Origin: Candidatus Poribacteria bacterium
GTDB lineage: Bacteria; Poribacteria; WGA-4E; PCPOR2b
DNA length: 64,000 bases
Direction of reading: 5' to 3'
NCBI GenBank assembly: GCA_965218095.1
Contig: OZ244587.1
Span: 1,088,001-1,152,000 of the forward strand
Positions 2,665-39,467 of the stretch are shown here, one piece after another. Position numbers and translations under genes: made by a program. Within the stretch, counting starts at the first letter, position 1. Each line of letters begins with the position of its first letter. The notes under the pieces were generated by a model that was not told the DNA's origin, searched no databases, and saw only the letters and a program-made list of their open reading frames with translations.

Positions 2665-4116
2665 TTACGCATGACTTCTGGCAAGATACGCCTTCAGGTG
2701 CGACACGGCACGACCACTGTCAATCGCTTCTCTTGTTCGTTCAATCGCTTCGCGTGGATCGGGGCAAAGTCCCAACAGATAGTCGGTCACCGCTGTGTTG
2801 AGCACGAGTCGATCGTATATCTGTCCTTTCTGACCGGATAACGCCCCCATCCCTACCTCCGCAAACGCTTCAGGATTCACCGTTTTCAGACGCGGATTTT
2901 TCTCATAGTTGAATCCGAAGGCTTTCGGATCTAGATCTAAAGCAAAATTGTCTTGCTGTTCGCCGACCCGCCGAAACCCCTGGGAATAATTCACCGCTTG
3001 TCGAACTACTGTCGAGGGATTTCCCAAACGCAAGGCGTAATGGCTTGTTCCTTCCTCCCCTTTTACCACGAGTCCAGCTTGAAAGCCACGCTCCCGTATC
3101 AAACGAAGCAGCGGTTCTTCGTAGCCAGGGTGGTAATACCCGATGACCATGTAATTTGCTCTGGAAGCGGAAAAGAGTTGCTGCGCTTTTTCCGTCGCAG
3201 CCCAGGGCGGACGCTTTTTGATATGAACGCGCAGTTCTCGGATACCGTAGCTGCCGGGAGAATATTCCCGTTGGCTCACATAGGCGAATCCAACTTCCGG
3301 ATCTTCGATTAAAGCTGCAGCTTCCTCAAGCGAGAGATCCGTGCGGGCGCCAAGCGACCGCAGGACCTTCTCCTCTGTGACCCCATTTTTCGGCGGCATC
3401 TCATCGACGCCATGCAGCACCGAAGCCTCTCCTAGAGCCGCTCGCACGGCTGCGATAAACAGCGTCGGTCTAAAGTATCGCGTCGAACCGTCGAACGGTT
3501 CGCCAAAATGTGTCAGCGAATCGACGGAAACCGGTCGCACCTGCTCTGGGCTGAAAACAGCGTCTAAATATCCACGCACTTCGTCGTAGGTTTCAAGGTT
3601 CATACGCTGCCCGATGAGGGCTGCCCCCTTCAGTGCCTCCTTCACGTGTCCATTCAGGATAGCTTTCCCCATTCGCAACGTTTCATCATAGGTCAAGTGC
3701 CCCCCCTGCAAAATCTTTTCGAGGGCTTTAAGGACAACCTCTTCCTCGATATTTGCGGGTTTATACTCCAAATCTGGCTGCATGATGAACTTTATCTCTG
3801 GGGGCATAAATCTTTCTAAATCCGCGCCGTACTTGTCGAAAGCCGCAATCTCCGCTTCGCTCCACTGTGTTTCTTTCGGAAAGTCCTTCCGAATCGTCAT
3901 CGCAGCGAAAAACGCCCCCATTTGAGCTCCCGAAACAGTCTGATCATCGGGCGCCTCTCCCCTGACCGATCTCAGGATGGTCTCAAGAATCGCTGCTGGC
4001 TGGATTGCATCCGCTGCTTTTACGCCCAATGGTCTTGTCTGGTGTGGCCCAGTGCAAACTCTCGCCTGGGCTTCTAGGACATCTTCATTGGGATCTGGAT
4101 ATTGTTTTTTGTACAT
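2665..4116 (-). CDS. Anthranilate phosphoribosyltransferase-like (glycosyltransferase family 3 / YbiB-like) protein
   Basis: AQMGAFFAAM N-terminal helical domain; HFGEPFDGSTRYF, LHGVDEMPPKNGVT, VVKGEEGT, C-terminal AIDSGRA. Confidence 0.75.
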   Translation of the reverse strand: MYKKQYPDPNEDVLEAQARVCTGPHQTRPLGVKAADAIQPAAILETILRSVRGEAPDDQTVSGAQMGAFFAAMTIRKDFPKETQWSEAEIAAFDKYGADLERFMPPEIKFIMQPDLEYKPANIEEEVVLKALEKILQGGHLTYDETLRMGKAILNGHVKEALKGAALIGQRMNLETYDEVRGYLDAVFSPEQVRPVSVDSLTHFGEPFDGSTRYFRPTLFIAAVRAALGEASVLHGVDEMPPKNGVTEEKVLRSLGARTDLSLEEAAALIEDPEVGFAYVSQREYSPGSYGIRELRVHIKKRPPWAATEKAQQLFSASRANYMVIGYYHPGYEEPLLRLIRERGFQAGLVVKGEEGTSHYALRLGNPSTVVRQAVNYSQGFRRVGEQQDNFALDLDPKAFGFNYEKNPRLKTVNPEAFAEVGMGALSGQKGQIYDRLVLNTAVTDYLLGLCPDPREAIERTREAIDSGRAVSHLKAYLARSHA

Positions 4117-4152
4117 GGTTTTTCCCTCCTCTGGGTGGTTCTGAGAAGTATT

Positions 4153-4292
4153 TAGGACTTACGCAGTTACGATAAGAAACCAGCGTGTTTTCTGTATCTG
4201 GCATCATGTATCCTGTACTCGTGTTGGATTCAAGATTCAAGAAGCAGCAAGGATTTGAAGTGAACCTGCAATGTGCATATGCGTAAGTCCTG
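4153..4292. mobile_element. 140-bp MITE (non-autonomous IS derivative)
   Basis: Terminal inverted repeats TAGGACTTACGCA (4153-4165) / TGCGTAAGTCCTG (4280-4292), flanked by 5-bp direct repeat GTATT (4148-4152, 4293-4297). Confidence 0.85.
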
Positions 4293-4294
4293 GT

Positions 4295-4323
4295 ATTATA
4301 ACACAGTTCTATGTGATTGGTAA
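4295..4323 (-). promoter_or_regulatory. Putative sigma70 promoter (extended -10) for the 4116 gene
   Basis: Minus strand TTACCA-17 bp-TATAAT with TGt extension (TGTTATAAT). Confidence 0.55.
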
Positions 4324-4343
4324 ATGATGTAGAATTCCTTTCC

Positions 4344-4372
4344 TTGACAGGAGAAAAGCTGTATGCTATACT
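4344..4372 (+). promoter_or_regulatory. Sigma70-type promoter
   Basis: TTGACA-17 bp-TATACT with TGc extended -10. Confidence 0.7.
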
Positions 4373-4427
4373 CCTCCACATCGAGCATCTACCTTCTCGA
4401 AATTCCGCCTGAAAACAGGAACGCATT

Positions 4428-4852
4428 ATGCATCCTAAACACACGACCTTTTCACTCCTTTTTTCTCTACTGCCGCTCTCGGCGATTGCCTCTGCTCAGG
4501 AACCGGCAACAAAAGCCGATCTGCAAGCATTAGAATTGAAGCTGACTAATCAGATGACGGAGATGGGTAAACGCCTCACCGGTCAGATTGCAGCACTAGA
4601 CAAACGCCTGACCACCCGAATTGACGTGTTGTTTTGGGCAATGAGCGCGTTAATCGGAATCGTCTTAGCCGTAATTGCCTTCAAGTTTTAGGATATTTTC
4701 AAGGAAAGCGGGAGCGCGCCGATTTGCAAACGCAGATCGAAGAACAGCGTGTTGATATGCAGAAGATGGTTGAAGAATTGAACCAGCGTGTTGAACAACA
4801 GCAGCAGGAAATTGAGGAATTGAAATCCCGAAGAATTGTGACGCCCTCTTGA
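4428..4852 (+). pseudogene. Frameshifted signal-peptide/coiled-coil/TM protein (ATKADL, DUF1640-like)
   Basis: ORF 4428-4691 (signal peptide, ATKADLQALE, TM helix) continues in another frame (VLGYFQGKRERADLQ, coiled coil) to 4852; shift near 4680. Confidence 0.6.
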
Positions 4853-5021
4853 TCGATGAAAACAGAAACGCCCCTATTACGCATTACGCAGCACATTGAG
4901 ATCAGATCTTTTTCTTGAAACTCCCCGACATCTGTGTTACAATCTGAATTTCCTGAAATCACAAGTTGTGCGAATTACTCAATGGATATTATCACCCAAC
5001 ACATTGATGAGCGACACTGTT

Positions 5022-6494
5022 ATGAGAAATTCGAGAAAAGCGTTACTGCGCTTCACAGCTTTGGGGCTTCTCCCGTTCTGCATAACAACTGCGGCATCTG
5101 CCCAGACTGCCGAGCAGATTGCGGAGCGAGCGTTAGCGGCTACAGCGTATTTAGAGATGACTGATAGGAACGGCAAAACTCTTGGATTTGGCAGCGGCTT
5201 CGTCGTTGACCAGAGCCAGATTGCAACCAACTTCCACGTTATCGAAGGAGCGGCAAAAGGAACTGCAAAGCTGGTTGGCAAAACCACGAAATATACTATC
5301 GAAGGCATATCCGCAATTGATGAGAAAAATGACCTCGCCATCCTAAAGGTCAAGGGATTTGGGGGTGAACCACTCCCCCTTGGCGACAGCGATACGGTTA
5401 AAATTGACCAAACGGTTTACGTCGCAGGCAATCCGAAAGGATTGGAAGGTACGTTTTCAGATGGCATCATCAGTGACCTCGTCGCCCCAAAGTTCTATAT
5501 GATTCCAGAACAATCCTACATAATAACTGCGCCCATTTCTCCGGGGGGTAATGGGGGGGCCGTGCTAAACGGAAGCGGCGAAGTCATAGGTGTTTCTTTG
5601 CGGTTCACTATATACATGCACACGTACACGTTGGCCATTCCTTCAAATTATCTCAAGGAGTTACTCGCTTGGTCAGGGGAGACAAAACCTTTGTCACAGG
5701 ACGAACAATCCATATCCACCAAAACCCATTTTATTAGAGGTTGTGTAAACAACGAGCTAGGTAACTATAATGAAGCCGTTGCAGCCTATACACAGGCAAT
5801 CTGTCTCGGCTTTGATTATGACTTTGTCTACACCGGGCGGGGAAAAGCGAAGGATAAATTAGGACAATACTTCACCGCTATCACCGATTATGATACTGCT
5901 ATACGACTCAGACCCAATTTTGGCTATGCTTATCTCAGGCGGGGTAGCGCGAAGGCTGCATTAAAACAATACTTCACCGCTATCACCGATTACGATACCG
6001 TTATACGACTTAACCCGGATTCTACCCTAGCTGTCACGGCTTACATCAAGCGGGGACAGGCGAAGGATAGCTTAGGACAATACTTCACCGCTATCACCGA
6101 TTATGATACTGCTATACGACTCAGACCCAATTCTGACTATGCTTATCTCAATCGGGGTAATGCGAAGGCTGCATTAAAACAACACGCCGCCGCCATCGAA
6201 GACTACGACAAGGCAATCCAGCTTGAACCCGATGATGCCTCTGCCTACATCAATCGGGGAAGATTGAAGGCTATTTTAGAACAATACCTCGCTGCCATCG
6301 CAGACTGTGACAAGGCAATCCAACTTGAACCGAATAATGCCAGAGCTTATTGCATTCGGGGAATTACAAAGGATCTACTGGGGCACACTTGGGAAGGGAA
6401 GCAAGATCTCCGAACTGCATTGCAGCTTGCGAAACAGGCCGGCGATGAGGGTCTCAAAGATGAAATCGAGAAAATGCTTAAGATGTTCGACTAG
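5022..6494 (+). CDS. Secreted trypsin-like (S1) protease-fold protein with TPR repeats; catalytic Ser apparently replaced
   Basis: Signal peptide; GFGSGFVV..ATNFHV, DLAIL, GNPKGLEGTFSDGIIS, ISPGGNGG; about 7 TPR repeats (AY..RG.AK..L.QY..AI.DYD.AI.L.P). Confidence 0.85.
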   Translation: MRNSRKALLRFTALGLLPFCITTAASAQTAEQIAERALAATAYLEMTDRNGKTLGFGSGFVVDQSQIATNFHVIEGAAKGTAKLVGKTTKYTIEGISAIDEKNDLAILKVKGFGGEPLPLGDSDTVKIDQTVYVAGNPKGLEGTFSDGIISDLVAPKFYMIPEQSYIITAPISPGGNGGAVLNGSGEVIGVSLRFTIYMHTYTLAIPSNYLKELLAWSGETKPLSQDEQSISTKTHFIRGCVNNELGNYNEAVAAYTQAICLGFDYDFVYTGRGKAKDKLGQYFTAITDYDTAIRLRPNFGYAYLRRGSAKAALKQYFTAITDYDTVIRLNPDSTLAVTAYIKRGQAKDSLGQYFTAITDYDTAIRLRPNSDYAYLNRGNAKAALKQHAAAIEDYDKAIQLEPDDASAYINRGRLKAILEQYLAAIADCDKAIQLEPNNARAYCIRGITKDLLGHTWEGKQDLRTALQLAKQAGDEGLKDEIEKMLKMFD

Positions 6495-6630
6495 ATTCTG
6501 TTGACATTTGACGAATTGAACCATTACTGATGCACCTTGCAGTGATTTCGGACAACTGCCCCGGTTTTTGGTGGGGCACCCGATGATTACAGCGTTTCCC
6601 GAATTCGTGACAGCAAATGTCAACACGCCC
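6494..6630. mobile_element. 137-bp MITE with ends related to the IS5-family elements of this window
   Basis: Ends GATTCTGTTGACATTTG / CAAATGTCAACACGCCC resemble the IS5 TIR GGTTCTGTTGACATTT; TA duplication (6492-6493, 6631-6632) at a CTAG site. Confidence 0.85.
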
Positions 6631-6735
6631 TAGCAAGATCTGAAACATAGGGAAGTTTCCCGGAGGTTCTGTGCTTAAAATTCAGTTGTTTTTCGGGGTG
6701 AAATTGGGATCGAGATTTGTTACAGAACAGGTAAT

Positions 6736-8259
6736 ATGAGTAATCAAGTTCCAGACAAAAATTATGTTTATAGTGCTTTATTGCGCTACAATTACCTACC
6801 TATCGGCAAAGTACGCCCGGACGAGATACCGTCCAAAATCTTTTCTACCGAAGATTTCACGCCCAAAGTAGCTGATGAAATGCTTAAACAATATGGAGGA
6901 AAGCTAAAAAAGAAAGGATATGATCAGATAGAATACCGTGCAACTCGTTTTAATAAAGTGACGCGGCTTATGCATATTCCGCATCCACTGCCCTATGCGC
7001 GCTTATGCAAATGCCTATCAGACAACTGGGATAAACTCTCACATATATGTGAAAATCCCAACAGCGGCTTGAAGCCTGCGCGACATGATAATGGCAAACT
7101 GATAATGAGGAATTATGAACATATAGAGGACGAACAATTCCCAGGACTAAGGTTACGATTAGAGATTTCGACGGGTAAATTTTACCGGGTTGAAGCGGAT
7201 ATTTCATCATTTTTTCCTTCCATTTATACGCATTCAATCCCATGGGCACTCGTTGGACAACAGAAAGCAAAATCAAATTGGAATCCCAACGAATGGTATA
7301 ATAAGCTTGATAAAGTACAGCAAAACTTAAAAAGAAAAGAAACACGAGGAATACCTATTGGGCCGGCTACTTCAAATATTATATCCGAACTTATCCTATA
7401 CGAAGTTGATAAAGTATTACGTAAAAAGAACTATCAGTTTACGCGATATATTGATGATTATGAATGCTATTGCGAAACCCGGGAACAAGCAGAAAACTTT
7501 ATCCCGGACCTTGAGCGGGAATTACGGAAGTATCTCTTAGATCTTAACGCGGGGAAAGTGCGGACTGAGGAGTTACCTCTCGGGTTTCAAGCACAATGGG
7601 TGATTGCTTTGAGAAATCCTTTACCCTCTAAAAAGAAGCCCTCCCTTTGGGATATTATGAGTTTTCTGGATTCTGCAGTTGATTTACAAAAGCGTTATCC
7701 TGAAGGAAGTGTCTTGAAATATGCTGCACGTACGCTTGCTAACTCCAAGAAAAAGGAATTTGATAAAAACAGTGCTAGTTTTTTTCTGGAATACCTCATC
7801 GCGATAGCGGTTCACACGCCTAGCGTACTTCCAATTCTTTGCCAAGTAGCAAAGGAACATAACGTGGGTTCAAAATTGACAATTGAACCTGTTCTGAAGC
7901 AATCTATTAAGTTCCGGCGTTCTGATGCTATTTGTTGGTGTTTGTACTTCATGGGAATCTGCGGCCTAGCAGTTAGTGACAAACTTGCTACAGCTATCAT
8001 TGAGACGGAAGATTGTATGTCAATGGGGATGCTCATCGCCTTAAACCAACATCAAGAAAAGGTCTTTGATTTTCTTGGATACAAATTTAACTCCGCATCA
8101 AAATCAAAATATGACTATGACTATGACCAGTACTGGATTCTGATTCATGAATTAGCTCCAGACTGTCCCCAATTCAACCGTTACCGTGGAGAATCTGGAT
8201 TAAAATTTCTCAGAAAAAAGAATGTCCATTTTATAAAGCCGATAAATACAGAGACCTAA
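6736..8259 (+). CDS. RNA-directed DNA polymerase, UG/Abi class 1, DRT4-like anti-phage reverse transcriptase
   Basis: ADISSFFPSIYTHSIPWA, GIPIGPATSNIISELIL, FTRYIDDY; N-terminus LLRYNYLP...GYDQIEYRATRFN..R...IPHP..Y; helical C-terminal extension; AT-rich. Confidence 0.85.
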   Translation: MSNQVPDKNYVYSALLRYNYLPIGKVRPDEIPSKIFSTEDFTPKVADEMLKQYGGKLKKKGYDQIEYRATRFNKVTRLMHIPHPLPYARLCKCLSDNWDKLSHICENPNSGLKPARHDNGKLIMRNYEHIEDEQFPGLRLRLEISTGKFYRVEADISSFFPSIYTHSIPWALVGQQKAKSNWNPNEWYNKLDKVQQNLKRKETRGIPIGPATSNIISELILYEVDKVLRKKNYQFTRYIDDYECYCETREQAENFIPDLERELRKYLLDLNAGKVRTEELPLGFQAQWVIALRNPLPSKKKPSLWDIMSFLDSAVDLQKRYPEGSVLKYAARTLANSKKKEFDKNSASFFLEYLIAIAVHTPSVLPILCQVAKEHNVGSKLTIEPVLKQSIKFRRSDAICWCLYFMGICGLAVSDKLATAIIETEDCMSMGMLIALNQHQEKVFDFLGYKFNSASKSKYDYDYDQYWILIHELAPDCPQFNRYRGESGLKFLRKKNVHFIKPINTET

Positions 8260-8315
8260 GGTCTGAAGTTCGCTTCATATGACGAGGATATAGAAATTCT
8301 GAGGATAACTACATA

Positions 8316-9578
8316 ATGAACAGATCACTGAGTGAAGTTGACCCACAGATTGTCCAGATTATGCTTCAAGATCTGGACCGGCTGCAAAATTGCCTGACAT
8401 TGATTCCTTCGGAAAATTATGTGAGTAAAGCGGTCATGCAGATGCAGGCGAGTGTTCTTACCAGTAAATACGCCGAAGGCACTCCTGGTGCTCGTTATTA
8501 CAACGGCTGTGCATTCGTAGACGGAGTGGAAAGCCTCGCAATCGATCGTGCGAAGCGGCTTTTCGGCGTTGAGCATGTCAACGTGCAGCCGCACGCCGGG
8601 AATTTAGCCAATATGGCAGCTTACCATGCGCTGCTTGAGCCGGGCGATACGATTCTGTCAATGAGACTCGATCACGGCGGTCATCTGAGTCATGGGCTTC
8701 CCCAGAATTTCTCAGGTAAATATTACAACGTCGTCCCTTACGGTGTTGACACGGAAACAGAGCGGATTAACATAAGTGCGATAGCCGAACTTGCGAAAGT
8801 GCACCAGCCCAAGCTAATTATCGTTGGCGGTAGTGCTTACCCACGCTGGTTCAATTTTTCGCAGTGGCGAGAAGTTGCAGATTCTGTTGGTGCATATCTC
8901 ATGGCGGACATCGCTCATATTGCGGGACTTATTGCCGCAGATGCGCATCCGGATCCGGCGGCTTACTGTGATGTAATCACCACAACGACTCACAAGACCC
9001 TGCGTGGTCCGCGTGGAGGGATCATCATGTCCAGAAATCAACTCGCTGAAGCAATTGATCGGGCGGTATTTCCGGGTATACAGGGCGGTCCCTTCATGCA
9101 CACCATTGCGGCGAAAGCGGTTGCCTTCAAAGAAGCCATGGAGCCAGCCTTCAGGGAATACCAAAGACAGGTCGTGAAAAACGCCAAGGCCCTTGCCAAA
9201 GCACTCTCCGAAAATGGATTTCGCCTAGTAAGCGGCGGCACGGACAACCACCTCATGCTGATCGATTTGACCGCGACATACAAGCAGTTGAGTGGGCGGC
9301 AAGCCGCAGACTACCTTGAGGGGGCAGGGATTATTGTCAACAAGAATACCATCCCGTTTGATAAACGGTCTGCGACCACAACGAGTGGGATTCGACTTGG
9401 CACGCCAATGGTGACAGCACGCGGAATGAAAGAGGCAGAGATGAAGTCGATTGCTGATTTCATTAGCGAAGTCCTCCAGGAACGAAGAAACAAAAAAGCC
9501 AAACAGCGCTTTAGAGAAAAAGTTCAGGAACTGTGTCAGCAATTTCCAATCTATGAAGATCTGAATCTGTGGACATGA
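8316..9578 (+). CDS. glyA: Serine hydroxymethyltransferase
   Basis: [50 protein letters not shown]. Confidence 0.97.
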
Positions 9579-9584
9579 ATCACG

Positions 9585-10916
9585 TTGAATTACGAATCCG
9601 CTCTCGCCTATATTAACACATTCATCAACTTTGAGAAAAGTCCCGATTTCTCCCGACAGGCACGCCTCTATAATCTCAATCGCATCTCTCTCCTTTTAGA
9701 GCGCCTTGGAAATCCACATCGCAATTTGACGGTTATCCATATCGCTGGCAGCAAGGGGAAGGGGTCAACAGCAGCACTTATCGCTTCGATACTCACCCAC
9801 GGAGGCTACAGGACCGGCTTGTTTTCACAGCCGCACCTGATTACTCCCCGTGAACGTTGTCGCATTGACTCGCGGCTGATTTCAGAGAAGGCCTTCGCGC
9901 ATTATATCGATCGGATGAAACCGTCGATCGAGACTGTGGCAGGGATGGAAGCGATTGGGCCCATCTCCTTCTTTGAGATTTATACAGCCCTTGCCTTCTA
10001 CTATTTTGCAGACAATGCGGTTGATTTTGCGGTTGTTGAAGTGGGACTTGGCGGGCGGCTGGATGCGACAAATGTTGTCCATCCGCTTGTGAGCGTTATC
10101 ACGCCGATTAGCCTGGAGCACACAGCGGTGCTTGGAAATACACGCGGAAAGATCGCGAAGGAAAAGGCCGAGATCATTAAAACCGGCCGCCCGCTTGTGT
10201 TAGCCCCACAAGCCCCTGGAGCGCAAGCCGTGCTTGAAAGGGTCGCCGCAGACCGGGACGCCCCGATCGATCAGGTCGGACGCGGCATCTACCTGAAACG
10301 TAAAATCTGGAATATCGGTGGGCAGACGTTTGACCTCAACACACAGCAAACGTCATATCCAGACCTTTTTTTACCGTTGCTCGGTGAACATCAGGCGATT
10401 AACGCAGCGACTGCGATTGCTTGCATTGAGCGCATTCGTAAGGAAGGATATTCGATTCCCAGGACGAGTATCTACAACGGGCTGAAGGAGATTCGTTGGC
10501 CCGGACGCATGCAAGTCGTGGGGCGCTTGCCGATTATGTTGCTGGATGGAGCCCACTCGCCGACTTCGGCGAAGGTGTTGTGCAAGGCCATCCGTGAAAC
10601 CTTTCGTTACCGACGTTTGATTTTTGTCGTGGCGCTGATGCGGGACAAAGCCCTGAAAGCCATCGGCCGGGTGTTCTGTCCATTTGCCGATGAAATCATT
10701 ACAACACAGGCGTTTGATAACCCTCGCGTTATCCCGGCTGAGGAGATCGCGCAGGCGTGGTTAGATTTCGGAGTAGCTCTTCATGTTTGCCCCACAGTCC
10801 CTGAGGCAATACAGTTCGCGCAATCCATTGCCACACCTGCGGATATGATCTGTATCGCGGGCTCCATCTATCTCGTCGGAGAAACGATGAAGGTACTTGG
10901 TATATGTGAAACGTAA
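9585..10916 (+). CDS. folC: Folylpolyglutamate synthase / dihydrofolate synthase
   Basis: IHIAGSKGKGS, EVGLGGRLDATNV, WPGR, LDGAH, GSIYLVGE. Confidence 0.95.
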   Translation: MNYESALAYINTFINFEKSPDFSRQARLYNLNRISLLLERLGNPHRNLTVIHIAGSKGKGSTAALIASILTHGGYRTGLFSQPHLITPRERCRIDSRLISEKAFAHYIDRMKPSIETVAGMEAIGPISFFEIYTALAFYYFADNAVDFAVVEVGLGGRLDATNVVHPLVSVITPISLEHTAVLGNTRGKIAKEKAEIIKTGRPLVLAPQAPGAQAVLERVAADRDAPIDQVGRGIYLKRKIWNIGGQTFDLNTQQTSYPDLFLPLLGEHQAINAATAIACIERIRKEGYSIPRTSIYNGLKEIRWPGRMQVVGRLPIMLLDGAHSPTSAKVLCKAIRETFRYRRLIFVVALMRDKALKAIGRVFCPFADEIITTQAFDNPRVIPAEEIAQAWLDFGVALHVCPTVPEAIQFAQSIATPADMICIAGSIYLVGETMKVLGICET

Positions 10917-10978
10917 AACGTAATGCGTAAAATGTAAAGAACGTACCTACTTATACTCACTTTTAGAGGAGGAGTTTT

Positions 10979-13336
10979 ATGATCGAAACAGTTGTCAACT
11001 GGCTCCATGGAAGGAGCCGTAAATGTTTAGTATTTCTCGCTTCATTGGTGGGAGTGGCAGCCACAAATTCTGCCTTCGCACAAACCGAATCTCTCCCTTC
11101 GGTGCCAGCCGCGTGGTGGCTTGCGCCAATTGGCTCATTGTTCGCCTTGGCGTTCGCATTTTTCTTCTACAAATCCGTCATGAAGCAGAGTGAAGGCACA
11201 GAGGTGATGCGTGAGATCGCCCAATCCGTCCGCGAAGGGGCGATGGCTTACCTGAGACAGCAGTATAAAGTGGTGGGGATTGTTTTCGTCGTGCTATGCG
11301 TTATCTTCCTCATCATGGCTTTCGGGTTAAATGCCCAAAACAAGGTTGTTCCTTTTGCGTTTTTGACGGGTGGTTTCTTTTCAGGGCTTTGTGGTTTTCT
11401 TGGCATGAAGACCGCAACCAACGCATCGGCTCGCACGACGAGTGCCGCGATGGAGGGCCTCAACTCCGGTTTGCGAGTTGCCTTTCGCGCCGGTGCTGTG
11501 ATGGGACTGGTAGTTGTTGGCTTCGCTCTTTTAGACATCGCCGGTTGGTTCTTGATCCTTTACTATCTTTTCCCCAAGATTTTCCCAGGCTTTTTGGGCA
11601 CAAACCCACTGCCCCAGATCACCGTGATCATGTTGAGTTTTGGTATGGGTGCCTCCACACAGGCACTCTTTGCGCGTGTCGGGGGTGGCATCTACACGAA
11701 GGCAGCCGATGTCGGTGCCGATCTGGTAGGAAAAGTGGAAGCCGGCATCCCTGAAGATGATCCACGCAACCCTGCCGTGATTGCGGATAATGTCGGCGAT
11801 AATGTTGGCGATGTGGCGGGGATGGGGGCAGACCTGTACGAGTCTTATGCAGGCTCAATTTTGGCGACCGCTGCACTCGGTGTTGCCGCTATCGCCGCCA
11901 AAGAGCATGATAACATTGCGCTACAGTTAAAGTATCTCTCTGCCCCTATGGTCATCGCAGGAATTGGTGTGGTTCTCTCTATTTTGGGAATTTATATGGT
12001 GCGGACTAAAGAAGGTGCCTCAATGAGGCAGTTGATGGGTTCACTCAACCTGGGCATCAACGGGAGTGCGATTGGCATTGCCATCCTGGCGATTCCGGTG
12101 CTACTGTATCTAGACCTCCCGAACAAGTGGCAAATTTGGGGCGCGATTGTGGCGGGTTTGTTAGCTGGGCTGATTATCGGCAAGGTGACCGAAGTGTTTA
12201 CATCCCACGATTATAGCCCAACACAGGGTATCGCCAAGCAGGCTGAAACGGGGCCGGCAACGGTTATCATTGAGGGCATTGCTGTGGGGATGCAGTCCAC
12301 CGCCATTCCTGTGATAACAGTTATTGCGGCTGTTGCAATTAGCTTCTATCTTCCGGGCGGTGCCAAAGATACGCTGATGGGGCTCTACGGGGTTGGCATT
12401 GCCGCCGTTGGAATGCTCGCCACACTCGGTATCACACTCGCCACTGATGCGTATGGGCCCATTGCGGACAACGCCGGCGGAAACGCAGAAATGTCTGAAC
12501 TGGATCCGAGTGTCCGTCAACGTACAGACCAACTCGATTCCCTCGGTAACACCACCGCCGCGACCGGCAAAGGATTCGCCATCGGTTCCGCTGCGCTCAC
12601 CGCGCTTGCACTCCTTGCCGCTTACCTTGAGGAGGTCCGGTATGGGTTAATTCACTTAGCAGACCAACATCAACTCGCCATCCCTGGTGAAGGGATGGTT
12701 GATACCGTCAAGGTCAGCATTGCCCAGTTCATGTCTTATTACAATGTGACCCTGATGAATCCTAAAGTGTTGATTGGTCTGTTTATCGGTGCGGTGATGG
12801 TGTTCTACTTCTGTGCCTTGACGATGAAAGCGGTTGGTCGTGCTGCCGGCGCGATGGTGTTGGAGGTCCGGCGTCAATTCCACGAGCGGCCGGGCATCAT
12901 GGAGCGGACAGAGAAGCCGGACTACGCCCGGTGTGTGGCGATTTCAACAGTCGGTGCGCAGAGAGAGATGATTCTTCCATCGCTGATTGCGATTATTGTC
13001 CCGGTGGTCGTTGGCTTGGTATTTAACGTTGCGGGTGTCCTCGGCTTGCTTGCCGGCGGTTTGGTGACCGGATTCGTGCTGGCGGTGATGATGGCGAATG
13101 CCGGCAGCGCGTGGGACAATGCAAAGAAGTACATTGAGGGCGGGGAATACGGCGGTAAGGGCTCTGACAATCATGCCGCAACGGTTGTCGGCGATACTGT
13201 CGGCGATCCGTTCAAGGATACCTCCGGGCCATCGCTCAACATTTTGATCAAACTGATGTCGATGGTGTCCGTGGTATTCGCAGGATTAATTGCGAAATAC
13301 GGTGCCGTGATCGGTGGCTTGTTGGGGATGGGCTGA
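10979..13336 (+). CDS. hppA: Membrane-integral ion-translocating pyrophosphatase, K+-dependent (Na+ or Na+,H+ type)
   Basis: GGGIYTKAADVGADLVGKVEAGIPEDDPRN, DNVGDNVGD, GNTTAATGK, GDTVGDPFKDTSGP. Confidence 0.96.
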   Translation: MIETVVNWLHGRSRKCLVFLASLVGVAATNSAFAQTESLPSVPAAWWLAPIGSLFALAFAFFFYKSVMKQSEGTEVMREIAQSVREGAMAYLRQQYKVVGIVFVVLCVIFLIMAFGLNAQNKVVPFAFLTGGFFSGLCGFLGMKTATNASARTTSAAMEGLNSGLRVAFRAGAVMGLVVVGFALLDIAGWFLILYYLFPKIFPGFLGTNPLPQITVIMLSFGMGASTQALFARVGGGIYTKAADVGADLVGKVEAGIPEDDPRNPAVIADNVGDNVGDVAGMGADLYESYAGSILATAALGVAAIAAKEHDNIALQLKYLSAPMVIAGIGVVLSILGIYMVRTKEGASMRQLMGSLNLGINGSAIGIAILAIPVLLYLDLPNKWQIWGAIVAGLLAGLIIGKVTEVFTSHDYSPTQGIAKQAETGPATVIIEGIAVGMQSTAIPVITVIAAVAISFYLPGGAKDTLMGLYGVGIAAVGMLATLGITLATDAYGPIADNAGGNAEMSELDPSVRQRTDQLDSLGNTTAATGKGFAIGSAALTALALLAAYLEEVRYGLIHLADQHQLAIPGEGMVDTVKVSIAQFMSYYNVTLMNPKVLIGLFIGAVMVFYFCALTMKAVGRAAGAMVLEVRRQFHERPGIMERTEKPDYARCVAISTVGAQREMILPSLIAIIVPVVVGLVFNVAGVLGLLAGGLVTGFVLAVMMANAGSAWDNAKKYIEGGEYGGKGSDNHAATVVGDTVGDPFKDTSGPSLNILIKLMSMVSVVFAGLIAKYGAVIGGLLGMG

Positions 13337-21758: not shown

Positions 21759-22832
21759 TCAATTGTCAATCTGCACCTTCTCCTCCGTCTCCGCGCTCAA
21801 ATAGATCGCGTCCAGCAGTTTCATGAACGTCAGCGCCTCGGCAGGAGAAACATCGGGCAGATTCGTGCCACGAATTGCGCCGGCGAAATCTCGAATCTCC
21901 GCAGTGAAATCGCCGTCATCGTGTTCCACGAATTCGTCGATGAAATCATCGTCTTCGATGTAGATGGCACCAAGCAGGCGGCGCGTTCCCGAATGCTTCT
22001 TTCCCGCAGGTTGCGAAGTTGATTCCTGTTCGATTGTGCCTGCTGTCCCCAAGATGCGTAGCCGTAAATCCCATGCCCGGTCTGCCCAGGTGGCAATGAC
22101 GGCTGAGGTATCCATCTGAAGCGTGATTCCACCGCTGAATCCGACCAGAAAACTGAGATAGTCTTCGGAGTGAGATTCGACCTGCATTGTTGTCGGAAAC
22201 GCGCTATGACTCGCGGCAAACGCCCATTCGGGTTGTGGACAGCCCATCAAAAACCACGCTTAATCGAGGTAGTGCGAGCCGTGCTGTCCCAACGCCCCGC
22301 CTTTGAATCCCCATTCATATAGCCAGCGTCTGTGCTCGGGTGGATTATGGTTGACCCCGCGTTCCCGGTAGTGATAATGCACTCGCGCATGATAGACCTG
22401 CCCGATTTTACCGTCGGCAATCATCTGCCGGGTCTTTTTGTTCTCTCGCTCATGCCGCATAAAATAGGAGTACACGAGTCTTCTCCCGGTGGTTTCCGCG
22501 ACCGCGTTAATTTCTTGGACATCCGCCGCGTTACACCCGTGCGGCTTCTGAACTAACACATCCTTGCCTGCCTTTAGCGCATCAACGACCATCGGCTTCC
22601 GCACATCGGGAGGTGTGGCGACCCCAACCGCTTCCACCTCGTCATCCGCGAGCAATTCCCGATAGTCGCCATAAACTCTGGGGACATCGTTATCGTCGGC
22701 GACCTGTCGAGCGAGCTCCTGATTCAGATCGGCAACCGCCCAGGCGATTGTATCTTCGCCGTTTTTCGAGCCCGCCACCCAGGTACGACCAACTCTGCAA
22801 CCAACCACGCCAATTTTGATTTTTTCTGCCAT
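21759..22832 (-). pseudogene. Gfo/Idh/MocA oxidoreductase with in-frame nonsense codon
   Basis: IKIGVVGC, KDVLVQKP, GGALGQHGSHYLD-TAA(22260-22262)-AWFLMG continues in the same frame. Confidence 0.85.
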
Positions 22833-22852
22833 TGTTACATCTCCTTTCACGT

Positions 22853-23617
22853 TCACTCATCACGCAGGAATTGATGAAGATGCGTTTTCATCAGATTATC
22901 TTGAGGTTGGTAACCGAGGATTTCAACAGCCGCGCTAATGTCAAGAAAACTTAACTGGTAATCTGTCGCATTGCCCGACCTGCCATACGTTATGAGGTAT
23001 TTCACAGGTCCCTCATAATCAACAGCGAGTCCAAAAAGTTGTGCACAGTCACGCGGCGTCAGGAGGGTACTACAAGCGCGTAAGCTATTCGCTTCGTATC
23101 CGCCGGAGAAGGTACCAATGCGGATGCTGATAAAACGCATGTCGTAAGCATCGACAAGGTAACGCCCCGCAATCTCCGTCATGCCTTTCATCGCCCCATA
23201 CCAACTATCTGGTCGAACTTGAGCACTTGTGGAGAATCGCGGCGGAGAATTCAAGTTTTCGTTCCAGCCGGTCACATGGTTTGTGGCTGCGAACACAATT
23301 TTTTGGACGCCGCCTTCGCGTGCAGCCTCAAACAACAACATTGACGCGCCAATATCCGTCACCTCACCCGGCACCTTGCCAAGGTGGACTTGAGGAACAA
23401 ACGCCAAGTGAACGAGGACATCCTGATTTTCACATAGCTCTCGCATACGCTGGTAGTCACGAACATCTCCCTGTTCGACGCGAGATTTTGCGCCATCGAC
23501 CACCTTGAGGTCTACCAATGTCAAAGTGTATTTATCTTCCTTTTCCCACGCACCCCACAATGCACTGCCGACTTTTCCTGCCGCACCTGTAATGAGAACA
23601 CGTTGTTTTTGAGCCAT
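22853..23617 (-). CDS. NAD-dependent epimerase/dehydratase (uronate dehydrogenase-like SDR)
   Basis: VLITGAAGKVG, VHLA, RPDSWYGAMK (YxxxK), SIRIG. Confidence 0.85.
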   Translation of the reverse strand: MAQKQRVLITGAAGKVGSALWGAWEKEDKYTLTLVDLKVVDGAKSRVEQGDVRDYQRMRELCENQDVLVHLAFVPQVHLGKVPGEVTDIGASMLLFEAAREGGVQKIVFAATNHVTGWNENLNSPPRFSTSAQVRPDSWYGAMKGMTEIAGRYLVDAYDMRFISIRIGTFSGGYEANSLRACSTLLTPRDCAQLFGLAVDYEGPVKYLITYGRSGNATDYQLSFLDISAAVEILGYQPQDNLMKTHLHQFLRDE

Positions 23618-27796: not shown

Positions 27797-28615
27797 GTTC
27801 TGTTGACATTTCAAGGGAGCCATATAAGAGTGGAGACAAAGCTGAGAAATCCAAAATAACGGATAGCTAACTTCTCGAACCGAGAGAAGATGCGGCGATA
27901 CCATTTTATCTTGTTAATGAAACATTCAACCCGATGTCTCTCTTTGTACAGATGTTTGTCGTAATCTCTTTGATCCACACGATGACTTTTTGGCGGTATC
28001 ACCGCAATCGCTCCATTCGCCTCAATAACCGCGATAAAAGCGTCCGAATCGTACCCCTTGTCTCCAATCACATACTCGCTTTTATATCCAAGTATCAACG
28101 CTTCTGCTTCCGCTATGTCGTTTCTTTGACCGGGTGTCAGATGTATTCTTAGTGGATTACCCAGGCCGTCAACGGTGATGTGAATTTTTGTACTGAATCC
28201 CCCGCGAGAGCAGCCTAACGCTTGGTTTTCAGTGCCACCCTTTTTTTTAAGGCACCCGCCGCAGACGGGTGCGCTCGAATGATTGTACTGTCAACAATAA
28301 GCGACTCGATATCGGGGTCAGAGGCGAAGTGGGGGTGGATCTGTGTGAAGACCCCTTTGTCGCACCACCGAGCAAACCGCTTATAGAGGGTGTTCCATTT
28401 ACCATAGGTGTCTGGCAGAAGTCTCCATTGAGCACCGCTACGGGTCGCCCAGAGAACAGCTTCGATAAAGCGGCGTGTTGTCGCTTCGTTGCCAACATAG
28501 ATGGTGGGACAAGTTAGAAGAAACGAGTATATCTTTTTCCATTGGTCATCGGGTAAGGTTATTGGCATCATTCTTCTATTATGCCACAACCTTATACTCA
28601 AATGTCAACAGAACC
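27796..28615 (-). mobile_element. IS5-family element (two-ORF, -1 frameshift type), copy 1
   Basis: TIR GGTTCTGTTGACATTT, TA duplication, 820 bp; orfA (RSGAQWRLLP..YGKW) and orfB (GDKGYDSD, YKERHRVECFINKIK) joined at A8GGG. Confidence 0.95.
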
Positions 28616-33221: not shown

Positions 33222-36200
33222 ATGAACCATCTAAATCGACGGACTAGCGAATCAAGAAATCGGGTTATGGACTTCTTACGTTTTACGTTTTACGCATTGT
33301 ATTGTTTCTTTCTTTTTAACATTCTTGCTTCAGGGGCTCACGCCATCTTAAACGCCAGATTAGATCAAAACGGAATTACTGTCGAGTTTGATCTCCCAGA
33401 ACTTGAAGTCTCGACAATCGAACGTAATGGTATCCGGTATCAGGCGGTCAGCTTCGAGGGAAGCGGGTTTATTAATAAAGTCGGTAATCCACGCCTTCCT
33501 GTGTCGCGTGTCGTGCTCGGCGTGCCACCAGGCGTCGACTTTCACGTCGAAACCCTCCATGCAACAAATGAAACACGGCTCGGCTACCGCATCCCACCTG
33601 TCCCACATCGTGTGCCTCAGATCCGTGGAGATGACACGATTTCTCCTTCGCGCTCTGAAAACTTCCAGACGCTCGCAGAAAAATGGCGCGAAGATGGTCC
33701 CGCTTACCGAACACGCAGCGACTATCCCAAATCCCTTGCGCAAATTGTTTACGATGGCTACATCCGAGCCCAGCGGGTGATCTATCTGGAACTTCACCCG
33801 GTCCAGTATCAAACGAAATCGAGAGCGTTGCGGATTCACCCTCGCATGATTGTCCATGTCCACTTTGTGAATCAGGGACAATCAAATACCGGATTTCAGG
33901 GATCCAGTTTTTCGCCCTCCCGAGCCACAGTCGAAGAACCCGCCCCGTTTGAGCGGATGTACCAGAATTTTCTGTTGAACTACGATGACGCCAAACGTTG
34001 GCGCGTCCCGAGAACGAGCAGAAATACTGTCCCGGCAGCGCCCGCAGCGTCACGGCAGACGCTCGGGAAACGGTATAAGATTCTCGTCGATAAAACTGGC
34101 ATTTACCGCCTGACGAGCGAAGATCTGCGTCGAAAATGGGGGATTGATCTGAGAGGCGTGGATGCACGCCGTCTGCATCTGAAGACGAATAACCGGGAGA
34201 TTCCGATGTATATTCATGGTGAAGCGGATGGACGCTTCGATCGTGGAGACTACATCGAATTTCTCGGCCTGGATGCGAAGAGTCAGTATACGCGGTGGAA
34301 TGTCTATTGGTTGAGCGCAGAACAAACGCGTGGGGTGCGTGTTTCCGAAATCTATGCCAGTCCTGATGATCCTTTAGCAAAGCTCGTGCCCAGCTTTCGA
34401 TCGAAACTCCACTTTGAGGAAGATCATCTCCATAGTACCTTGCGGCAGGTTCACCCCGAAGATGTTTCACCGAGGGACAAGCACGGTTGGTTCGAGGCGC
34501 TCGACTTCTGGTACTGGACGGGCATCAAAAATCTGGCTGACGCGAATGAAGTCGATTTGGAGTTTCCGCTTTATGACCTGACTCAGAGCTTTGATCAACC
34601 AGGTATCCGCGTCACATTGCAAGGCGGAACGCCAACCGATCACGAGGTGCTTGTTTCAATCAACGGGGTCCGGATTGATGAAGCCAAATGGTCGAGTCAA
34701 AACATTACCACAGTTGAGCGAACATTACGGGTTTGGAACAACCTGCGAGATGCCGCCAAAGGTGAGAAGAATGTAATCACCCTCACCCGGGTTGATACCA
34801 CCACAGAAGAAAGTACCCGCCCCTATCCTTACCACGTTTATATTAATTCCTTCGATGTTGAGTATACCCGCCTGCTGAAGGCTGTCAACGATTACCTTGA
34901 ATTTACCTCTCCCGCCAGTACTGAGCTGCATGGCGTCCGAAAACGGCGTAATCTGGAATATACCATCCAGACCTTCCTTTCTCCCGATGTGGAGCTCTTT
35001 GAACACGATGGTGAAGTGTTGGTTTCAAAGTTGCAAAATCCGAAGATACAGCGCGTAAATCTGAATCGAGCAGAGCGGCTTCGTTTCCGCGAAATCCTCC
35101 GTTTCAACGCGGAACGTGACGACGAAGGTGAATCCGGGCAAATCCTACAGGACATTCCGCGCATCGCTTACAACGCAACCTTCCAGGTTCGTGATGCGCA
35201 TGACGCTAGGTATATTGCTGTCTCAGCCGCTGGTGTGCGTGAACCGGTCCGCGTCGAGATGGCACCGCCGAGCGATTTACTTTCTCCCTCCAATAGTGCA
35301 GATTATATCATCCTCAGTCACCCTGTATTCCTTGAGGCGGCAGAAAGATTGGCGCAGTGGCGATCGACACAAAAGGGTGGTGGATACCGAACGAAAGTCG
35401 TTGATGTGACCCAGATCTATGATCTCTTCAGCAACGGTATGGTTAATCCGAAAGCCATCAAAGCCTTCCTCAAGTACATTTACGAAAACTGGACGCCTCC
35501 TGCGCTTTCTTACGTCACAATTCTGGGGGATGGCACATTTGATCATCGCGGAATTGATGAGGAGCTCTATCCGGAACCTCCCGAATTGGCGGGCTATATC
35601 CCAACCCCCTACATCTGGACAACTTCCTTCGGGCAGACTTCCATCGATCACTGGTATACGACAGTCAAAGGCATTGACGAGCTCCCGGATTTCTACATTG
35701 GAAGGTTGAGCGTGGAAACGGTTGATCAAGCCAACAGTGTTGTCGAAAAGATTCTCAACTATGAAGGAAACCGCCCCAATGGAAGCTGGCGTCGTCGGAT
35801 CATCTCGGTGGCTGACGACGAAATCAATAACTCTGGCGATTCTATCTTCAAACGGAGCTTGACTGAGATTGCGAAAAACCACACGCTCCTCGGTTATGAA
35901 ACAATAGCAATCTATCTCGAAGATATCAATAAGATGGTCAAGGCGAACCCGGCAGTGTACCCTGGAAAGCTGCCGAAGTGGGTTGCAAAGGATATGATTA
36001 TTGATGCAATGGGCAAGGGGAGTGTTATTGCGCAATACGCCGGACACGGGGGGCGTATTGTTTGGGCGCATGAAGCAATCTATGATAACGCCGCTGTCGA
36101 TCGGGTGGACCAAACTGACCATCTCCCATTCATGCTGGTGTTGAGTTGTTATAACGGCTATTTTGATGCACCCGGCCAACCGAGCATAGCGGAAAAAATG

Positions 36201-39200: not shown

Positions 39201-39467
39201 CCAAACCCATTCAAGGAAGATACAGAGATTACCTGCGAGCTTACCGGTGCTGCTGACGAAATGACGGTCAAGATCTACAGCCTATCAGGGCGTTTGGTAC
39301 GGAAGTTCACGGAACCGGCTCCCGCCGGCTTCATGATGATGCCCTGGGACGGGCGCGACAGAGACGGCGAGGAGGTTGCAAATGGCGTGTACTACTGCAA
39401 GATCCGCGTCAAGATGCCGGAAGAGAAGGATTTGACGGAATACATCAAGATGATGAAGCTGAAGTGA
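33222..39467 (+). CDS. Large C25 (gingipain/PorU-like) cysteine peptidase with propeptide, CARDB-like and C-terminal FlgD-Ig/T9SS-CTD-like domains
   Basis: GNPRLP propeptide, TGIYRLT..DL, ADYIIL, ILGDGTFD, IGRL, YAGHG, LSCYNGYFD, LFGDPA; C-terminal NYPNPF...IYSLSGRLVR...WDGRD..G..VANGVYY. Confidence 0.9.
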   Translation: MNHLNRRTSESRNRVMDFLRFTFYALYCFFLFNILASGAHAILNARLDQNGITVEFDLPELEVSTIERNGIRYQAVSFEGSGFINKVGNPRLPVSRVVLGVPPGVDFHVETLHATNETRLGYRIPPVPHRVPQIRGDDTISPSRSENFQTLAEKWREDGPAYRTRSDYPKSLAQIVYDGYIRAQRVIYLELHPVQYQTKSRALRIHPRMIVHVHFVNQGQSNTGFQGSSFSPSRATVEEPAPFERMYQNFLLNYDDAKRWRVPRTSRNTVPAAPAASRQTLGKRYKILVDKTGIYRLTSEDLRRKWGIDLRGVDARRLHLKTNNREIPMYIHGEADGRFDRGDYIEFLGLDAKSQYTRWNVYWLSAEQTRGVRVSEIYASPDDPLAKLVPSFRSKLHFEEDHLHSTLRQVHPEDVSPRDKHGWFEALDFWYWTGIKNLADANEVDLEFPLYDLTQSFDQPGIRVTLQGGTPTDHEVLVSINGVRIDEAKWSSQNITTVERTLRVWNNLRDAAKGEKNVITLTRVDTTTEESTRPYPYHVYINSFDVEYTRLLKAVNDYLEFTSPASTELHGVRKRRNLEYTIQTFLSPDVELFEHDGEVLVSKLQNPKIQRVNLNRAERLRFREILRFNAERDDEGESGQILQDIPRIAYNATFQVRDAHDARYIAVSAAGVREPVRVEMAPPSDLLSPSNSADYIILSHPVFLEAAERLAQWRSTQKGGGYRTKVVDVTQIYDLFSNGMVNPKAIKAFLKYIYENWTPPALSYVTILGDGTFDHRGIDEELYPEPPELAGYIPTPYIWTTSFGQTSIDHWYTTVKGIDELPDFYIGRLSVETVDQANSVVEKILNYEGNRPNGSWRRRIISVADDEINNSGDSIFKRSLTEIAKNHTLLGYETIAIYLEDINKMVKANPAVYPGKLPKWVAKDMIIDAMGKGSVIAQYAGHGGRIVWAHEAIYDNAAVDRVDQTDHLPFMLVLSCYNGYFDAPGQPSIAEKMLRKEKSGIIGMLSATRLTYGSGNDTLNRIIFDAIFRRNERQLGPISFDSKVKQLIQDGLGQVNIVMEYTLFGDPAMKLAMADYEVQAEIQTRTVASGQLLKTAPGQIVDVTYDPVIKQKRFTPVSNFNGKIQAKAVFPGTFTSVEGEEETIEVYSGNVIVAQAATVSHGRFPGFSLPVPKGISAGNAHVEFYAENTRQIAAGGSSFTVLVPKIVDIQPELVTGSTGNTNQPSQFRISAQVSDELKDQGIKSVILEWRDPVKKEWFTETMIRDTSRGSGWYTVSKPLPLPTNRKAVRYEITVIDIDDQQVNSGALEYRPFIFPDARVIAGGGFSGSLIYYGYSRGEGGWTLNADIEQIEDIELKENLEVAFFEGNPDRDSDLVIDADAKLLGKTQIRPSAWQRKNPVEPHKTSLKESQGNDDLLRPRAFKETPLNTNWIATATLQHELPIGNHEIFAYVDPVFDSAELPYGKLREGDETDNINSRIIQVQSFLIGKQDQHVFSQDAIIDFRIPARAVPQPAVLTIMPFNGQQQPKAVHQSNLISIALPNGDDAVAYSATLDLAALNATSIQQPITAELRFDLPALQEAVKAELGLAEISEPVPDQIVAINEGAEQQAKEIGMYLWVEALSKWVRLDSELITSSNGSIQTQSVVADVSESNYGDGEIYTVNIDLAGTRIGKWVLFFTSPETFRVLVHEDGKPLREIESNRVVNRIVDQSTDTPSTFRNGVAIGIGPSKKAFRFGDVLTFRTAQGLVNGEALTFYTSGFRNENNGTGSLQYVRLEENSAIVSDQWAILFIDPDRFQVEGEKSGILSRNGQPIIGKVREAFVSPELGLRLKVLPGDWEFEAGDHFRFKTKKAGRIRAEVPMFGTLTLMRSNDTVPPDLQLTIAKQNFVDGDPVSPEPLIQATLTDDNGIDYITRPLDLGISRNNREFRLIPETEYRLSHRSGSNQIVLNYQSPRLEPGTYQVRLTASDLDGNESEEEVEFRIHKILQLLRAMNYPNPFKEDTEITCELTGAADEMTVKIYSLSGRLVRKFTEPAPAGFMMMPWDGRDRDGEEVANGVYYCKIRVKMPEEKDLTEYIKMMKLK

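Follow-up and report, generated by a model that had tools for sequence, protein, structure and literature searches.

To our knowledge, DRT4 (UG15), a family of class 1 UG/Abi reverse transcriptases (RTs), has so far been dissected in one Escherichia coli enzyme only. Here we describe a DRT4 gene from a Candidatus Poribacteria bacterium, located at 6736..8259 on the plus strand of a 64,000-nucleotide stretch of its genome (assembly GCA_965218095.1, contig OZ244587.1, positions 1,088,001 to 1,152,000), which is hereafter called the window and to which all coordinates refer unless another locus is named. With this RT, in which none of the catalytic, priming or RNase residues is lost, DRT4 reaches an uncultured phylum with relatives in sponge metatranscriptomes. 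No paper listed by a literature search dealt with Poribacteria defence RTs. The locus adds two things to the published picture: the priming residue and the RNase site are confirmed by alignment in an enzyme that lacks the tail proposed to sense phage single-strand-binding protein (SSB), and gain and loss of the gene can be compared between relatives at one slot.

The E. coli enzyme (EcDRT4, strain 21-C8-A; PDB 9vdo, 9vdv, 9l9s and 21ou) is, according to three papers (Wang et al., PMC12783706; Jasnauskaite et al., bioRxiv 10.64898/2026.10.21.760695; Wei et al., bioRxiv 10.64898/2026.10.27.754916), a hexamer arranged as a dimer of trimers, in which each protomer makes template-independent, purine-rich single-stranded DNA (ssDNA) covalently on Tyr125. 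The priming site is supported in Wang et al. by the Y125F mutation and by cryo-electron microscopy density. The activators named in these papers are phage SSB-like proteins and raised deoxynucleoside triphosphate (dNTP) levels, the latter reported by Wei et al., and SSB-like proteases are given there as not involved. In Jasnauskaite et al., His160 and Asp192 make up the RNase site that acts as the effector, and the DRT4 RNase was first reported by Rong et al. (Science 2026), as cited in the two preprints. Additionally, a flexible tail (residues 508–540) is proposed as half of a "two-factor" phage-SSB sensor; according to the Pausch-lab preprint, neither RNase activation by SSB nor defence survives when the tail is deleted or carries a point mutation at N521, F523 or E525, and a 38-residue C-terminal deletion is reported to have abolished immunity (Mestre et al. 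2022).

The window RT shares with EcDRT4 the same curated family profile, the two-lobe fold whose thumb is replaced by a helical domain, the N-Y-E priming Tyr in the fingers-palm loop, the YIDD motif, the metal ligands, the dNTP-binding Arg, Asn and Lys, the stacking Tyr, the His/Asp RNase pair and several inter-trimer contacts (K179, E202), and both are single genes without a non-coding RNA. However, it is only ~35–38% identical to EcDRT4, lacks the 33-residue flexible C-terminal tail that carries N521, F523 and E525 in E. coli, and sits in a core-gene slot with no defence or prophage genes among its annotated neighbours. Two further comparators are DRT6/UG12 (PDB 9wy8), a hexameric protein-primed polymerase that is likewise class 1 UG/Abi and similar in size and fold, and AbiK and Abi-P2 (PDB 7r06-7r08), the founding examples of the family, in which an RT is also fused to a helical repeat domain and DNA synthesis is template-independent and protein-primed. 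The window RT differs from AbiK and Abi-P2 in sequence (16–20% identity) and in fold, with template-modelling scores normalized to the query (TMq) of 0.58–0.77; moreover, the DRT4 priming Tyr lies in a fingers-palm loop described in the Jia preprint as substantially longer than that of AbiK.

Family, fold and functional residues of the RT

The RT gene is an intact open reading frame (ORF) of 507 aa with an ATG start, whose translation contains DISSFFPSIYTHSIPWA, GIPIGPATS and RYIDDYE. Both the ORF listing and the translation agree with an earlier annotation made by a model from the letters alone (the sequence-only reading), which had proposed an intact 507-aa ORF with full RT motifs here. That reading had also called the gene AT-richer than its neighbours, and indeed the guanine plus cytosine (GC) content is 0.396 for the RT against 0.508 for the following gene, glyA, and 0.495 for the window, with sliding-window values of 0.376–0.428 across the ORF against 0.45–0.55 on both flanks. 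The RT is single-copy in this 6.35-Mb genome, which forms one contig.

Judged by profiles and by a predicted structure, the RT is a DRT4 (UG15) enzyme of class 1, as the sequence-only reading had suspected from its N-terminus. The NCBIfam Drt4 equivalog NF041749.1 scores 505.3 bits against a cut-off of 450 and aligns residues 10–499 with model positions 2–489 of 489, and other NCBIfam RT models fall far under their cut-offs (Drt3b 110.9/350, the group II intron model group_II_RT_mat 56.9/300 and retron St85 42.5/235 bits). In PADLOC, one of the classification checks that the reading had suggested, three Drt4 models rank on top (best E 2.9e-161, 535.9 bits), followed by Drt6 (E 5.7e-97, 323.7 bits) and then by UG30, UG31, UG14, AbiK (1.2e-45) and Abi-P2. 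Pfam recognises the RT core alone in the protein. A phmmer search of PDB places the E. coli DRT4/UG15 chains first (E 1.7e-89 to 2.7e-87, query residues 7–472), ahead of DRT6 (E 1.8e-27) and then Abi-P2 and AbiK. The RT thus scores clearly higher for DRT4 than for DRT6 in every comparison.

The same order is seen at the level of fold. An AlphaFold2 model built from 40 homologues has a predicted local distance difference test score (pLDDT) of 89.5 and a predicted template-modelling score (pTM) of 0.90, and its sole segment below 50 is residues 127–136. By Foldseek, the closest structures are the UG15 crystal structure 9l9s (TMq 0.86) and the DRT4 cryo-electron microscopy structures 9vdo and 9vdv (TMq 0.87, and up to 0.89 when normalized to the target), the whole DRT4/UG15 set spanning TMq 0.85–0.87, followed by DRT6 (0.80), AbiK (0.71–0.77) and Abi-P2 (0.58). 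Retron, group II intron, diversity-generating retroelement (DGR), DRT2 and DRT9 enzymes reach TMq of only ~0.24–0.37. A retron, group II intron or DGR origin, which the reading had named as the finding that would overturn it, was therefore rejected by profiles under cut-off, by the lack of an associated RNA and by these fold scores. The C-terminal domain (7594..8256, plus strand, approximately residues 287–507) is all-helical (alpha-Rep) and stands in place of a thumb, as indicated by the secondary structure of the model, Foldseek and tail lengths, in line with the helical extension noted from sequence. The family is large, with 1,646 matches at E <= 0.001 among 8,000 candidates scored, the nearest at 88% identity. 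All these results agree (NCBIfam above cut-off, PDB matches at E ~2e-89, TM-scores of 0.86–0.89), and the RT is an ordinary intact member of the now well-characterised DRT4 family.

No partner RNA or effector gene accompanies the RT. The reading had listed no intron RNA, cas, avd or effector gene next to it, and we likewise find no cas, avd, effector, intron RNA or retron RNA adjoining the gene. An Rfam search of 4000-11000 at E <= 1 gave no intron, retron, msr/msd, DGR or other RNA at threshold, its sole match being a sub-threshold RT-6 hit inside glyA (23 bits vs a gathering score of 46.7).

To place the functional residues, we transferred EcDRT4 positions by way of L062, a 538-aa Klebsiella DRT4 that agrees with the E. 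coli chain in its N-terminus and in numbering, and counted conservation in a 40-sequence clade alignment. Tyr127 (codon 7114..7116, on the plus strand like all codons given here), which the sequence-only reading had put forward as a candidate priming residue, aligns by both HMMER and MAFFT with EcDRT4 Tyr125, the proven primer in PMC12783706. It lies in the same N-Y-E motif, is Tyr in 36/40 sequences and opens the sole low-confidence, flexible loop of the model (127–136), and is thus the predicted priming residue. The metal ligand Asp155 (7198..7200; EcDRT4 Asp149) is conserved in 40/40, as are both Asp240 and Asp241 of the catalytic YIDD motif (Tyr238-Asp241, 7447..7458). The two RNase-site residues are His166 (7231..7233; 40/40), corresponding to the EcDRT4 His160 described in bioRxiv 10.64898/2026.10.21.760695, and Asp192 (7309..7311; 39/40), corresponding to EcDRT4 Asp192. 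Residues R77, N271, K274, K328, Y329 and E202 are each present in 40/40, and K179 and D312 each in 39/40.

Taken together, we consider it very probable that the RT is a stand-alone DRT4 (UG15) abortive-infection enzyme, carried as cargo of a slot between a TPR-repeat protease gene and glyA, where it is exchanged by recombination in the flanks and deleted again. The analysis itself shows the family, the fold, the conserved catalytic, priming and RNase residues, purifying selection and the lack of a partner RNA or effector gene; the activities, oligomeric state and trigger are inferred. By analogy with EcDRT4, the Tyr127 hydroxyl would prime template-independent synthesis of short ssDNA that stays covalently on the RT. 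Engagement of this attached DNA by a phage SSB, together with a rise in dNTPs, would then switch on the RNase site of His166 and Asp192, and the activated RNase would cut RNA, so that the infected cell is killed or arrested. Trigger recognition would probably proceed through the DNA product and the dNTP signal, or through another surface, because the window RT and the whole Poribacteria clade are without the SSB-contacting tail.

Several points weigh against this proposal. The function is assigned by homology at ~35–38% identity to the studied enzyme, and a number of EcDRT4 functional residues are replaced in the window RT (Q23 by G24, N285/D286 by Q285/A286, the interface residue F140 by T146, H204 by R204 and Q353 by F349), so the purine preference and the exact interfaces are not transferable from E. 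coli. Specifically, of the contacts in the E. coli hexamer, K179, E202 and D312 are kept, and F140 and H204 are the replaced ones. The protein ends 8 residues past the conserved Phe499 and has no flexible C-terminal tail. Additionally, of the 17 loci that represent this RT clade in other genomes, three are disrupted (L040 by a frameshift, L047 split, L081 by two insertion sequence (IS) insertions), and the gene is therefore dispensable. Finally, the RNA evidence used below consists of assembled contigs of related strains, which cannot prove transcription, and the uncovered parts (e.g. 6300-6467) are uninformative.

The opposite reading, that the RT is a decaying or inactive relic without current function, would draw on its patchy distribution, the stumps in relatives and the three disrupted clade loci. 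We regard it as highly improbable: the frame is intact with all catalytic, priming and RNase residues present, the model has high confidence, most of the gene is covered by RNA-library contigs from related strains, and dN/dS against orthologues is 0.23–0.26. The RT is thus under purifying selection, and its flanks have lower values of 0.04–0.11. Among other copies of the clade, the one in L081 (3322-6965) is interrupted twice, by a DDE transposase and by an IS1595-type zinc-ribbon ORF, that in L047 (5001-6531) is broken near residues 165–171, and that in L008 (8426-9930, genome G008) carries a frameshift near residues 81–86.

Absence of the tail extends beyond this genome. Tails are 6–15 residues long in 14/14 Poribacteria-type proteins, and in 32 homologues of other phyla 14 have tails of 24–41 residues and 18 have at most 15, so that the tail is short or missing in 32/46 homologues measured. 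The tail region lies outside the 489-position NCBIfam Drt4 model. The C-terminal tail is therefore a lineage-variable module, tail-less DRT4s must have another trigger route, and the published activation model cannot be general. As a side observation, one DRT4 homologue (P0115, 540 aa, 46% identity) ends in IPF, resembling the conserved C-terminal tip of bacterial SSB, and the E. coli DRT4 tail is likewise acidic-hydrophobic; DRT4 tails may mimic SSB tails.

Turnover of the RT at the slot before glyA

The sequence-only reading had described the RT as inserted before glyA. The slot is indeed before glyA, but this description understates its history, since relatives share the slot and RT-less relatives hold stumps of the gene. 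Among 40 relatives of the same order, the RT is present in only three (G009, G012 and G008, the last split by a frameshift), all in the family of the window (3/24) and none among the 16 genomes from other families. In all three carriers, glyA is the next gene after the RT, at distances of 52, 62 and 59 bp. The block of TPR-protease, optional RT, glyA, folC and H+-pyrophosphatase is syntenic in ten relatives; the protease orthologue precedes glyA in these 10 with or without the RT, and in most RT-less relatives the protease stop lies 57–110 bp from the glyA start.

The RT-less sites retain pieces of the gene. In G014 and G015, ~30 nt of the RT 3' end, with the stop codon and a hairpin, are kept and joined almost directly to the protease stop; the blastn-short hit (19 nt, 94.7% identity, E 0.007 in 135 kb) falls precisely where such a remnant would be expected. 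In G007, what remains is the RT leader plus 29 nt from the start of the ORF, 89.7% identical to the G009 RT (E 3e-4), fused to unrelated sequence that is also found in G013. In G003, the glyA leader alone is kept. Judged by these remnants, the RT-less sites are not empty sites that were never occupied; within one genus, the RT was deleted or replaced on at least three separate occasions. Yet another variant, without 7040-8272, is seen in an RNA-library contig of run X3. The slot thus occurs with intact copies, stumps, a frameshifted copy and, in community RNA libraries, a deletion variant, so that the locus illustrates cleanly, in natural genomes, how a defence gene turns over at a fixed slot of the core genome. 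The ~400 bp that stand in place of the RT in G007 (L022, 4707-5594) and G013 (L025, 9532-9963) form an unrelated coding-like stretch common to both.

Synonymous divergence gives the RT a different age from its surroundings. Measured as the proportion of synonymous differences (pS) over three genus pairs, the RT is nearly constant (0.417, 0.462 and 0.468), whereas glyA (0.562, 0.738 and 0.799) and folC (0.625, 0.729 and 0.863) both follow species distances. Codon bias as the cause of the low RT values was rejected, as random redraws of synonymous codons place the saturation plateau at 0.93–0.97. The RT is therefore younger than its flanks at the slot, and its lower synonymous divergence means that it has been both exchanged between relatives and lost.

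Traces of such exchange are seen at the right-hand side. The 56-nt spacer and glyA leader (8260..8315, plus strand) is conserved in g1, g4 and RT-carrying g5 genomes and is different in RT-less g5. Over the leader and the initial ~100–150 nt of glyA, the g5 carriers are g1/g4-like (0.79–0.80), and their leader is just 0.51 identical to that of RT-less congeners; deeper in glyA, the same-genus signal prevails (0.80–0.92 vs 0.68–0.78). The right-hand exchange boundary thus lies at the glyA 5' end. Upstream, the same carriers have one or two additional copies of the protease gene, together with the decayed 5' part of a glyA (aa 1–91), a scar consistent with single-crossover integration or tandem duplication. 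We considered a joint import of TPR-protease and RT into the g5 carriers, with g1/g4 as the donor, and rejected this, since the protease tree unites all g5 copies (support 99/96 and 92/89); the extra protease copies are therefore lineage-specific. On the left-hand side, the ~95-nt RT leader (6640..6735, plus strand), delimited by upstream alignment, is kept in the genomes with the RT before glyA and in the G007 stump. In our reading, the RT is the cargo of a long-lived fixed slot between the exported TPR-protease and glyA, swapped by flank recombination and frequently lost.

The wider occurrence was surveyed in two further data sets. A scan of IMG/VR viral contigs returned no member of the Poribacteria RT clade and 6 distant loci, all at or below 42% identity, which gives no support to phage carriage of this clade. 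Contigs ~90–96% identical to the RT occur in RNA-library runs X1, X2, X3 and X6, which are metatranscriptomes; X2 is labelled sponge metagenome.

Relation of the RT to glyA-folC and to the upstream protease

Downstream of the RT, the glyA start follows the RT stop after 56 bp, and folC and the H+-pyrophosphatase gene come next, all on the same strand. glyA (8316..9578, plus strand) encodes serine hydroxymethyltransferase (Pfam SHMT, E 1.2e-154) and is present in 25/25 genomes searched. The sequence-only reading had proposed that co-transcription with glyA-folC could tie the RT to nucleotide pools; the genes would then be functionally coupled, the RT and the supply of one-carbon units and nucleotides regulating one another. 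The same-strand arrangement with its short gap and no plus-strand terminator-like site in between would fit, as would its recurrence in three relatives and the activation of EcDRT4 by raised dNTP levels described in bioRxiv 10.64898/2026.10.27.754916. One 155-nt RNA-library contig from a related strain also runs across the RT stop and ends 25 nt inside glyA, but this falls short of the 31-letter bar for bridging the start codon; such contigs are not proof of a single transcript, and DNA carry-over in the libraries is possible.

The comparative data argue against coupling. In a scan of species-representative genomes that yielded 54 DRT4-like loci, glyA follows the RT in just 3 (L030, L037 and L040), all in the family of the window and the same three places as those found in the search of relatives. 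The same RT clade is found elsewhere in Poribacteria, in the aconitase-dnaE interval with DUF4377 genes after it (seven loci), before a Gabija/PD-T4-4-like ATPase (L043), and in classic defence neighbourhoods, namely within an hsdS-hsdR interval (L039), next to a methylase and a pair of TIR proteins (L035) and next to an HNH protein (L036). Moreover, 36/40 relatives give no RT match and a further one has just a split copy, yet glyA is present in 24/24 relatives searched for it. The deletions in G014, G015 and the X3 variant all spare the last ~30 nt of the RT and the spacer, and therefore suggest that signals of glyA itself lie there. Coupling to glyA-folC thus appears very improbable, and the part of the reading that linked the RT to nucleotide pools finds no comparative support: the idea is conceptually appealing given activation by dNTPs, but nothing in these data ties that activation to glyA. 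Scans for promoters (3 promoter-like sites vs 5.1 expected) and terminators (2 terminator-like sites vs 2.0 expected) gave no site informative for the RT-glyA junction. A short hairpin with a 5-bp stem lies at 8252..8264, its 3-nt loop being the RT stop codon, with no T-run after it on the plus strand.

Upstream of the RT lies an exported Trypsin_2 and TPR-repeat protease gene (4896..6494, plus strand; likely start ATG 5022, MRNSRK...), so that by Pfam the RT stands between a Trypsin_2+TPR protein and SHMT. The protease matches Trypsin_2 (E 5.2e-24) and many TPR families, carries a Sec-type signal peptide and is a conserved upstream neighbour of the RT slot. A homologous protease lies directly upstream of the RT in 9/17 clade loci in addition to the window, in three genomic contexts; only eight full-length paralogues exist in the genome of the window, and the recurrent adjacency is therefore unlikely to be chance. 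One may thus ask whether the RT and the protease form a two-gene defence system with the protease as sensor or effector. This recurrence across three contexts speaks for such a system, the protease domain matches the PADLOC profile of the retron type XI RT-protease (E 6.4e-15), and trypsin-like proteases are partners of the class 1 group UG9 according to Mestre et al. (2022). However, the PADLOC match reflects generic trypsin-fold similarity, and every RT-adjacent protease carries a Sec signal peptide and therefore works outside the cytoplasm. The protease is kept in RT-less relatives, its copy at the glyA locus is vertically inherited (clade support 97/94), and the RT occurs without it in 8/17 loci. 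The trees also differ, the RT tree grouping contexts A+B against C with the island copies nested in B, and the protease tree grouping B+C against A; strict co-divergence of the two genes was rejected on this disagreement. We accordingly judge that the recurrent neighbour is not a partner of the RT, and a two-gene system seems to us very improbable.

It is conceivable, though doubtful, that exported trypsin-TPR protease genes in Poribacteria mark, and possibly help create, exchange slots for single-gene defence systems. The thought comes from the protease family, whose members adjoin DRT4 (three contexts) and the candidate defence gene PDC-S31/DUF2971 (two families within the order), from paralogues in this genome that precede SspB with a fragmented SspC and an IS with a methyltransferase, and from glyA' and obg' scars at two loci. 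Either the repeat-rich 3' ends of the protease genes would serve as recombination anchors, or the proteases would be an unrecognised extracytoplasmic layer of phage defence. This reading is based on few loci and is not established.

The paralogue loci themselves are as follows. In G000, the genome of the window, a protease-paralogue pair lies between rplU and obg and is followed by a PADLOC PDC-S31/DUF2971 candidate (L084, 5833-6699; E 2.6e-37); another paralogue is followed by SspB (E 2.9e-101) and by SspC in three ORFs of 577, 367 and 226 aa (L085, 676-5669, minus strand); and a third is followed by an IS5-type transposase and a type II methyltransferase (L087, 4982-7324). The PDC-S31 gene flanked by protease paralogues is also found in G008, G010 and G029, the last from another family, and no PDC-S31/protease arrangement was found within 8.4 kb upstream of obg in six g4 genomes, G012, G004 and G002. 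A decayed obg 5' fragment of ~90 codons stands upstream of the protease and defence-gene unit in G029 (L099, 2277-2540), and decayed glyA 5' fragments of ~90 codons stand upstream of such a unit in L007 (6350-6631) and L008 (6907-7188). The same type of scar at the obg and glyA slots suggests single-crossover integration or tandem duplication.

Other features of the window

The gap upstream of the RT, 241 bp, exceeds that of relatives because it holds a ~145-bp repeat resembling a miniature inverted-repeat transposable element (MITE), at 6491..6636 between the protease gene and the RT leader. Its 12-bp terminal inverted repeats lie at 6499-6510 and 6614-6625 (repeat I2, 100% complementary), and at least 18 copies with 72–84% identity occur in the 6.35-Mb genome. 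The borders of the repeat show loose ends in RNA-library contigs, and in contigs of sponge metatranscriptomes short pieces of it have very deep coverage.

The sequence-only reading had placed the RT amid many decayed accessory genes. Decayed genes are present, namely a GFO/IDH/MocA oxidoreductase split into two adjacent ORFs (21762-22856, minus strand) and two truncated IS4/5 transposase fragments (28218-28601, minus strand; 55616-56263, plus strand), but most genes of the window have housekeeping or metabolic roles. An intact copy of the IS4/5 transposase is found at 44750-45553. Finally, a 2,081-aa protein encoded at 33222-39467 (plus strand) combines a gingipain-like Peptidase_C25 domain and its propeptide with a C-terminal FlgD-Ig domain.

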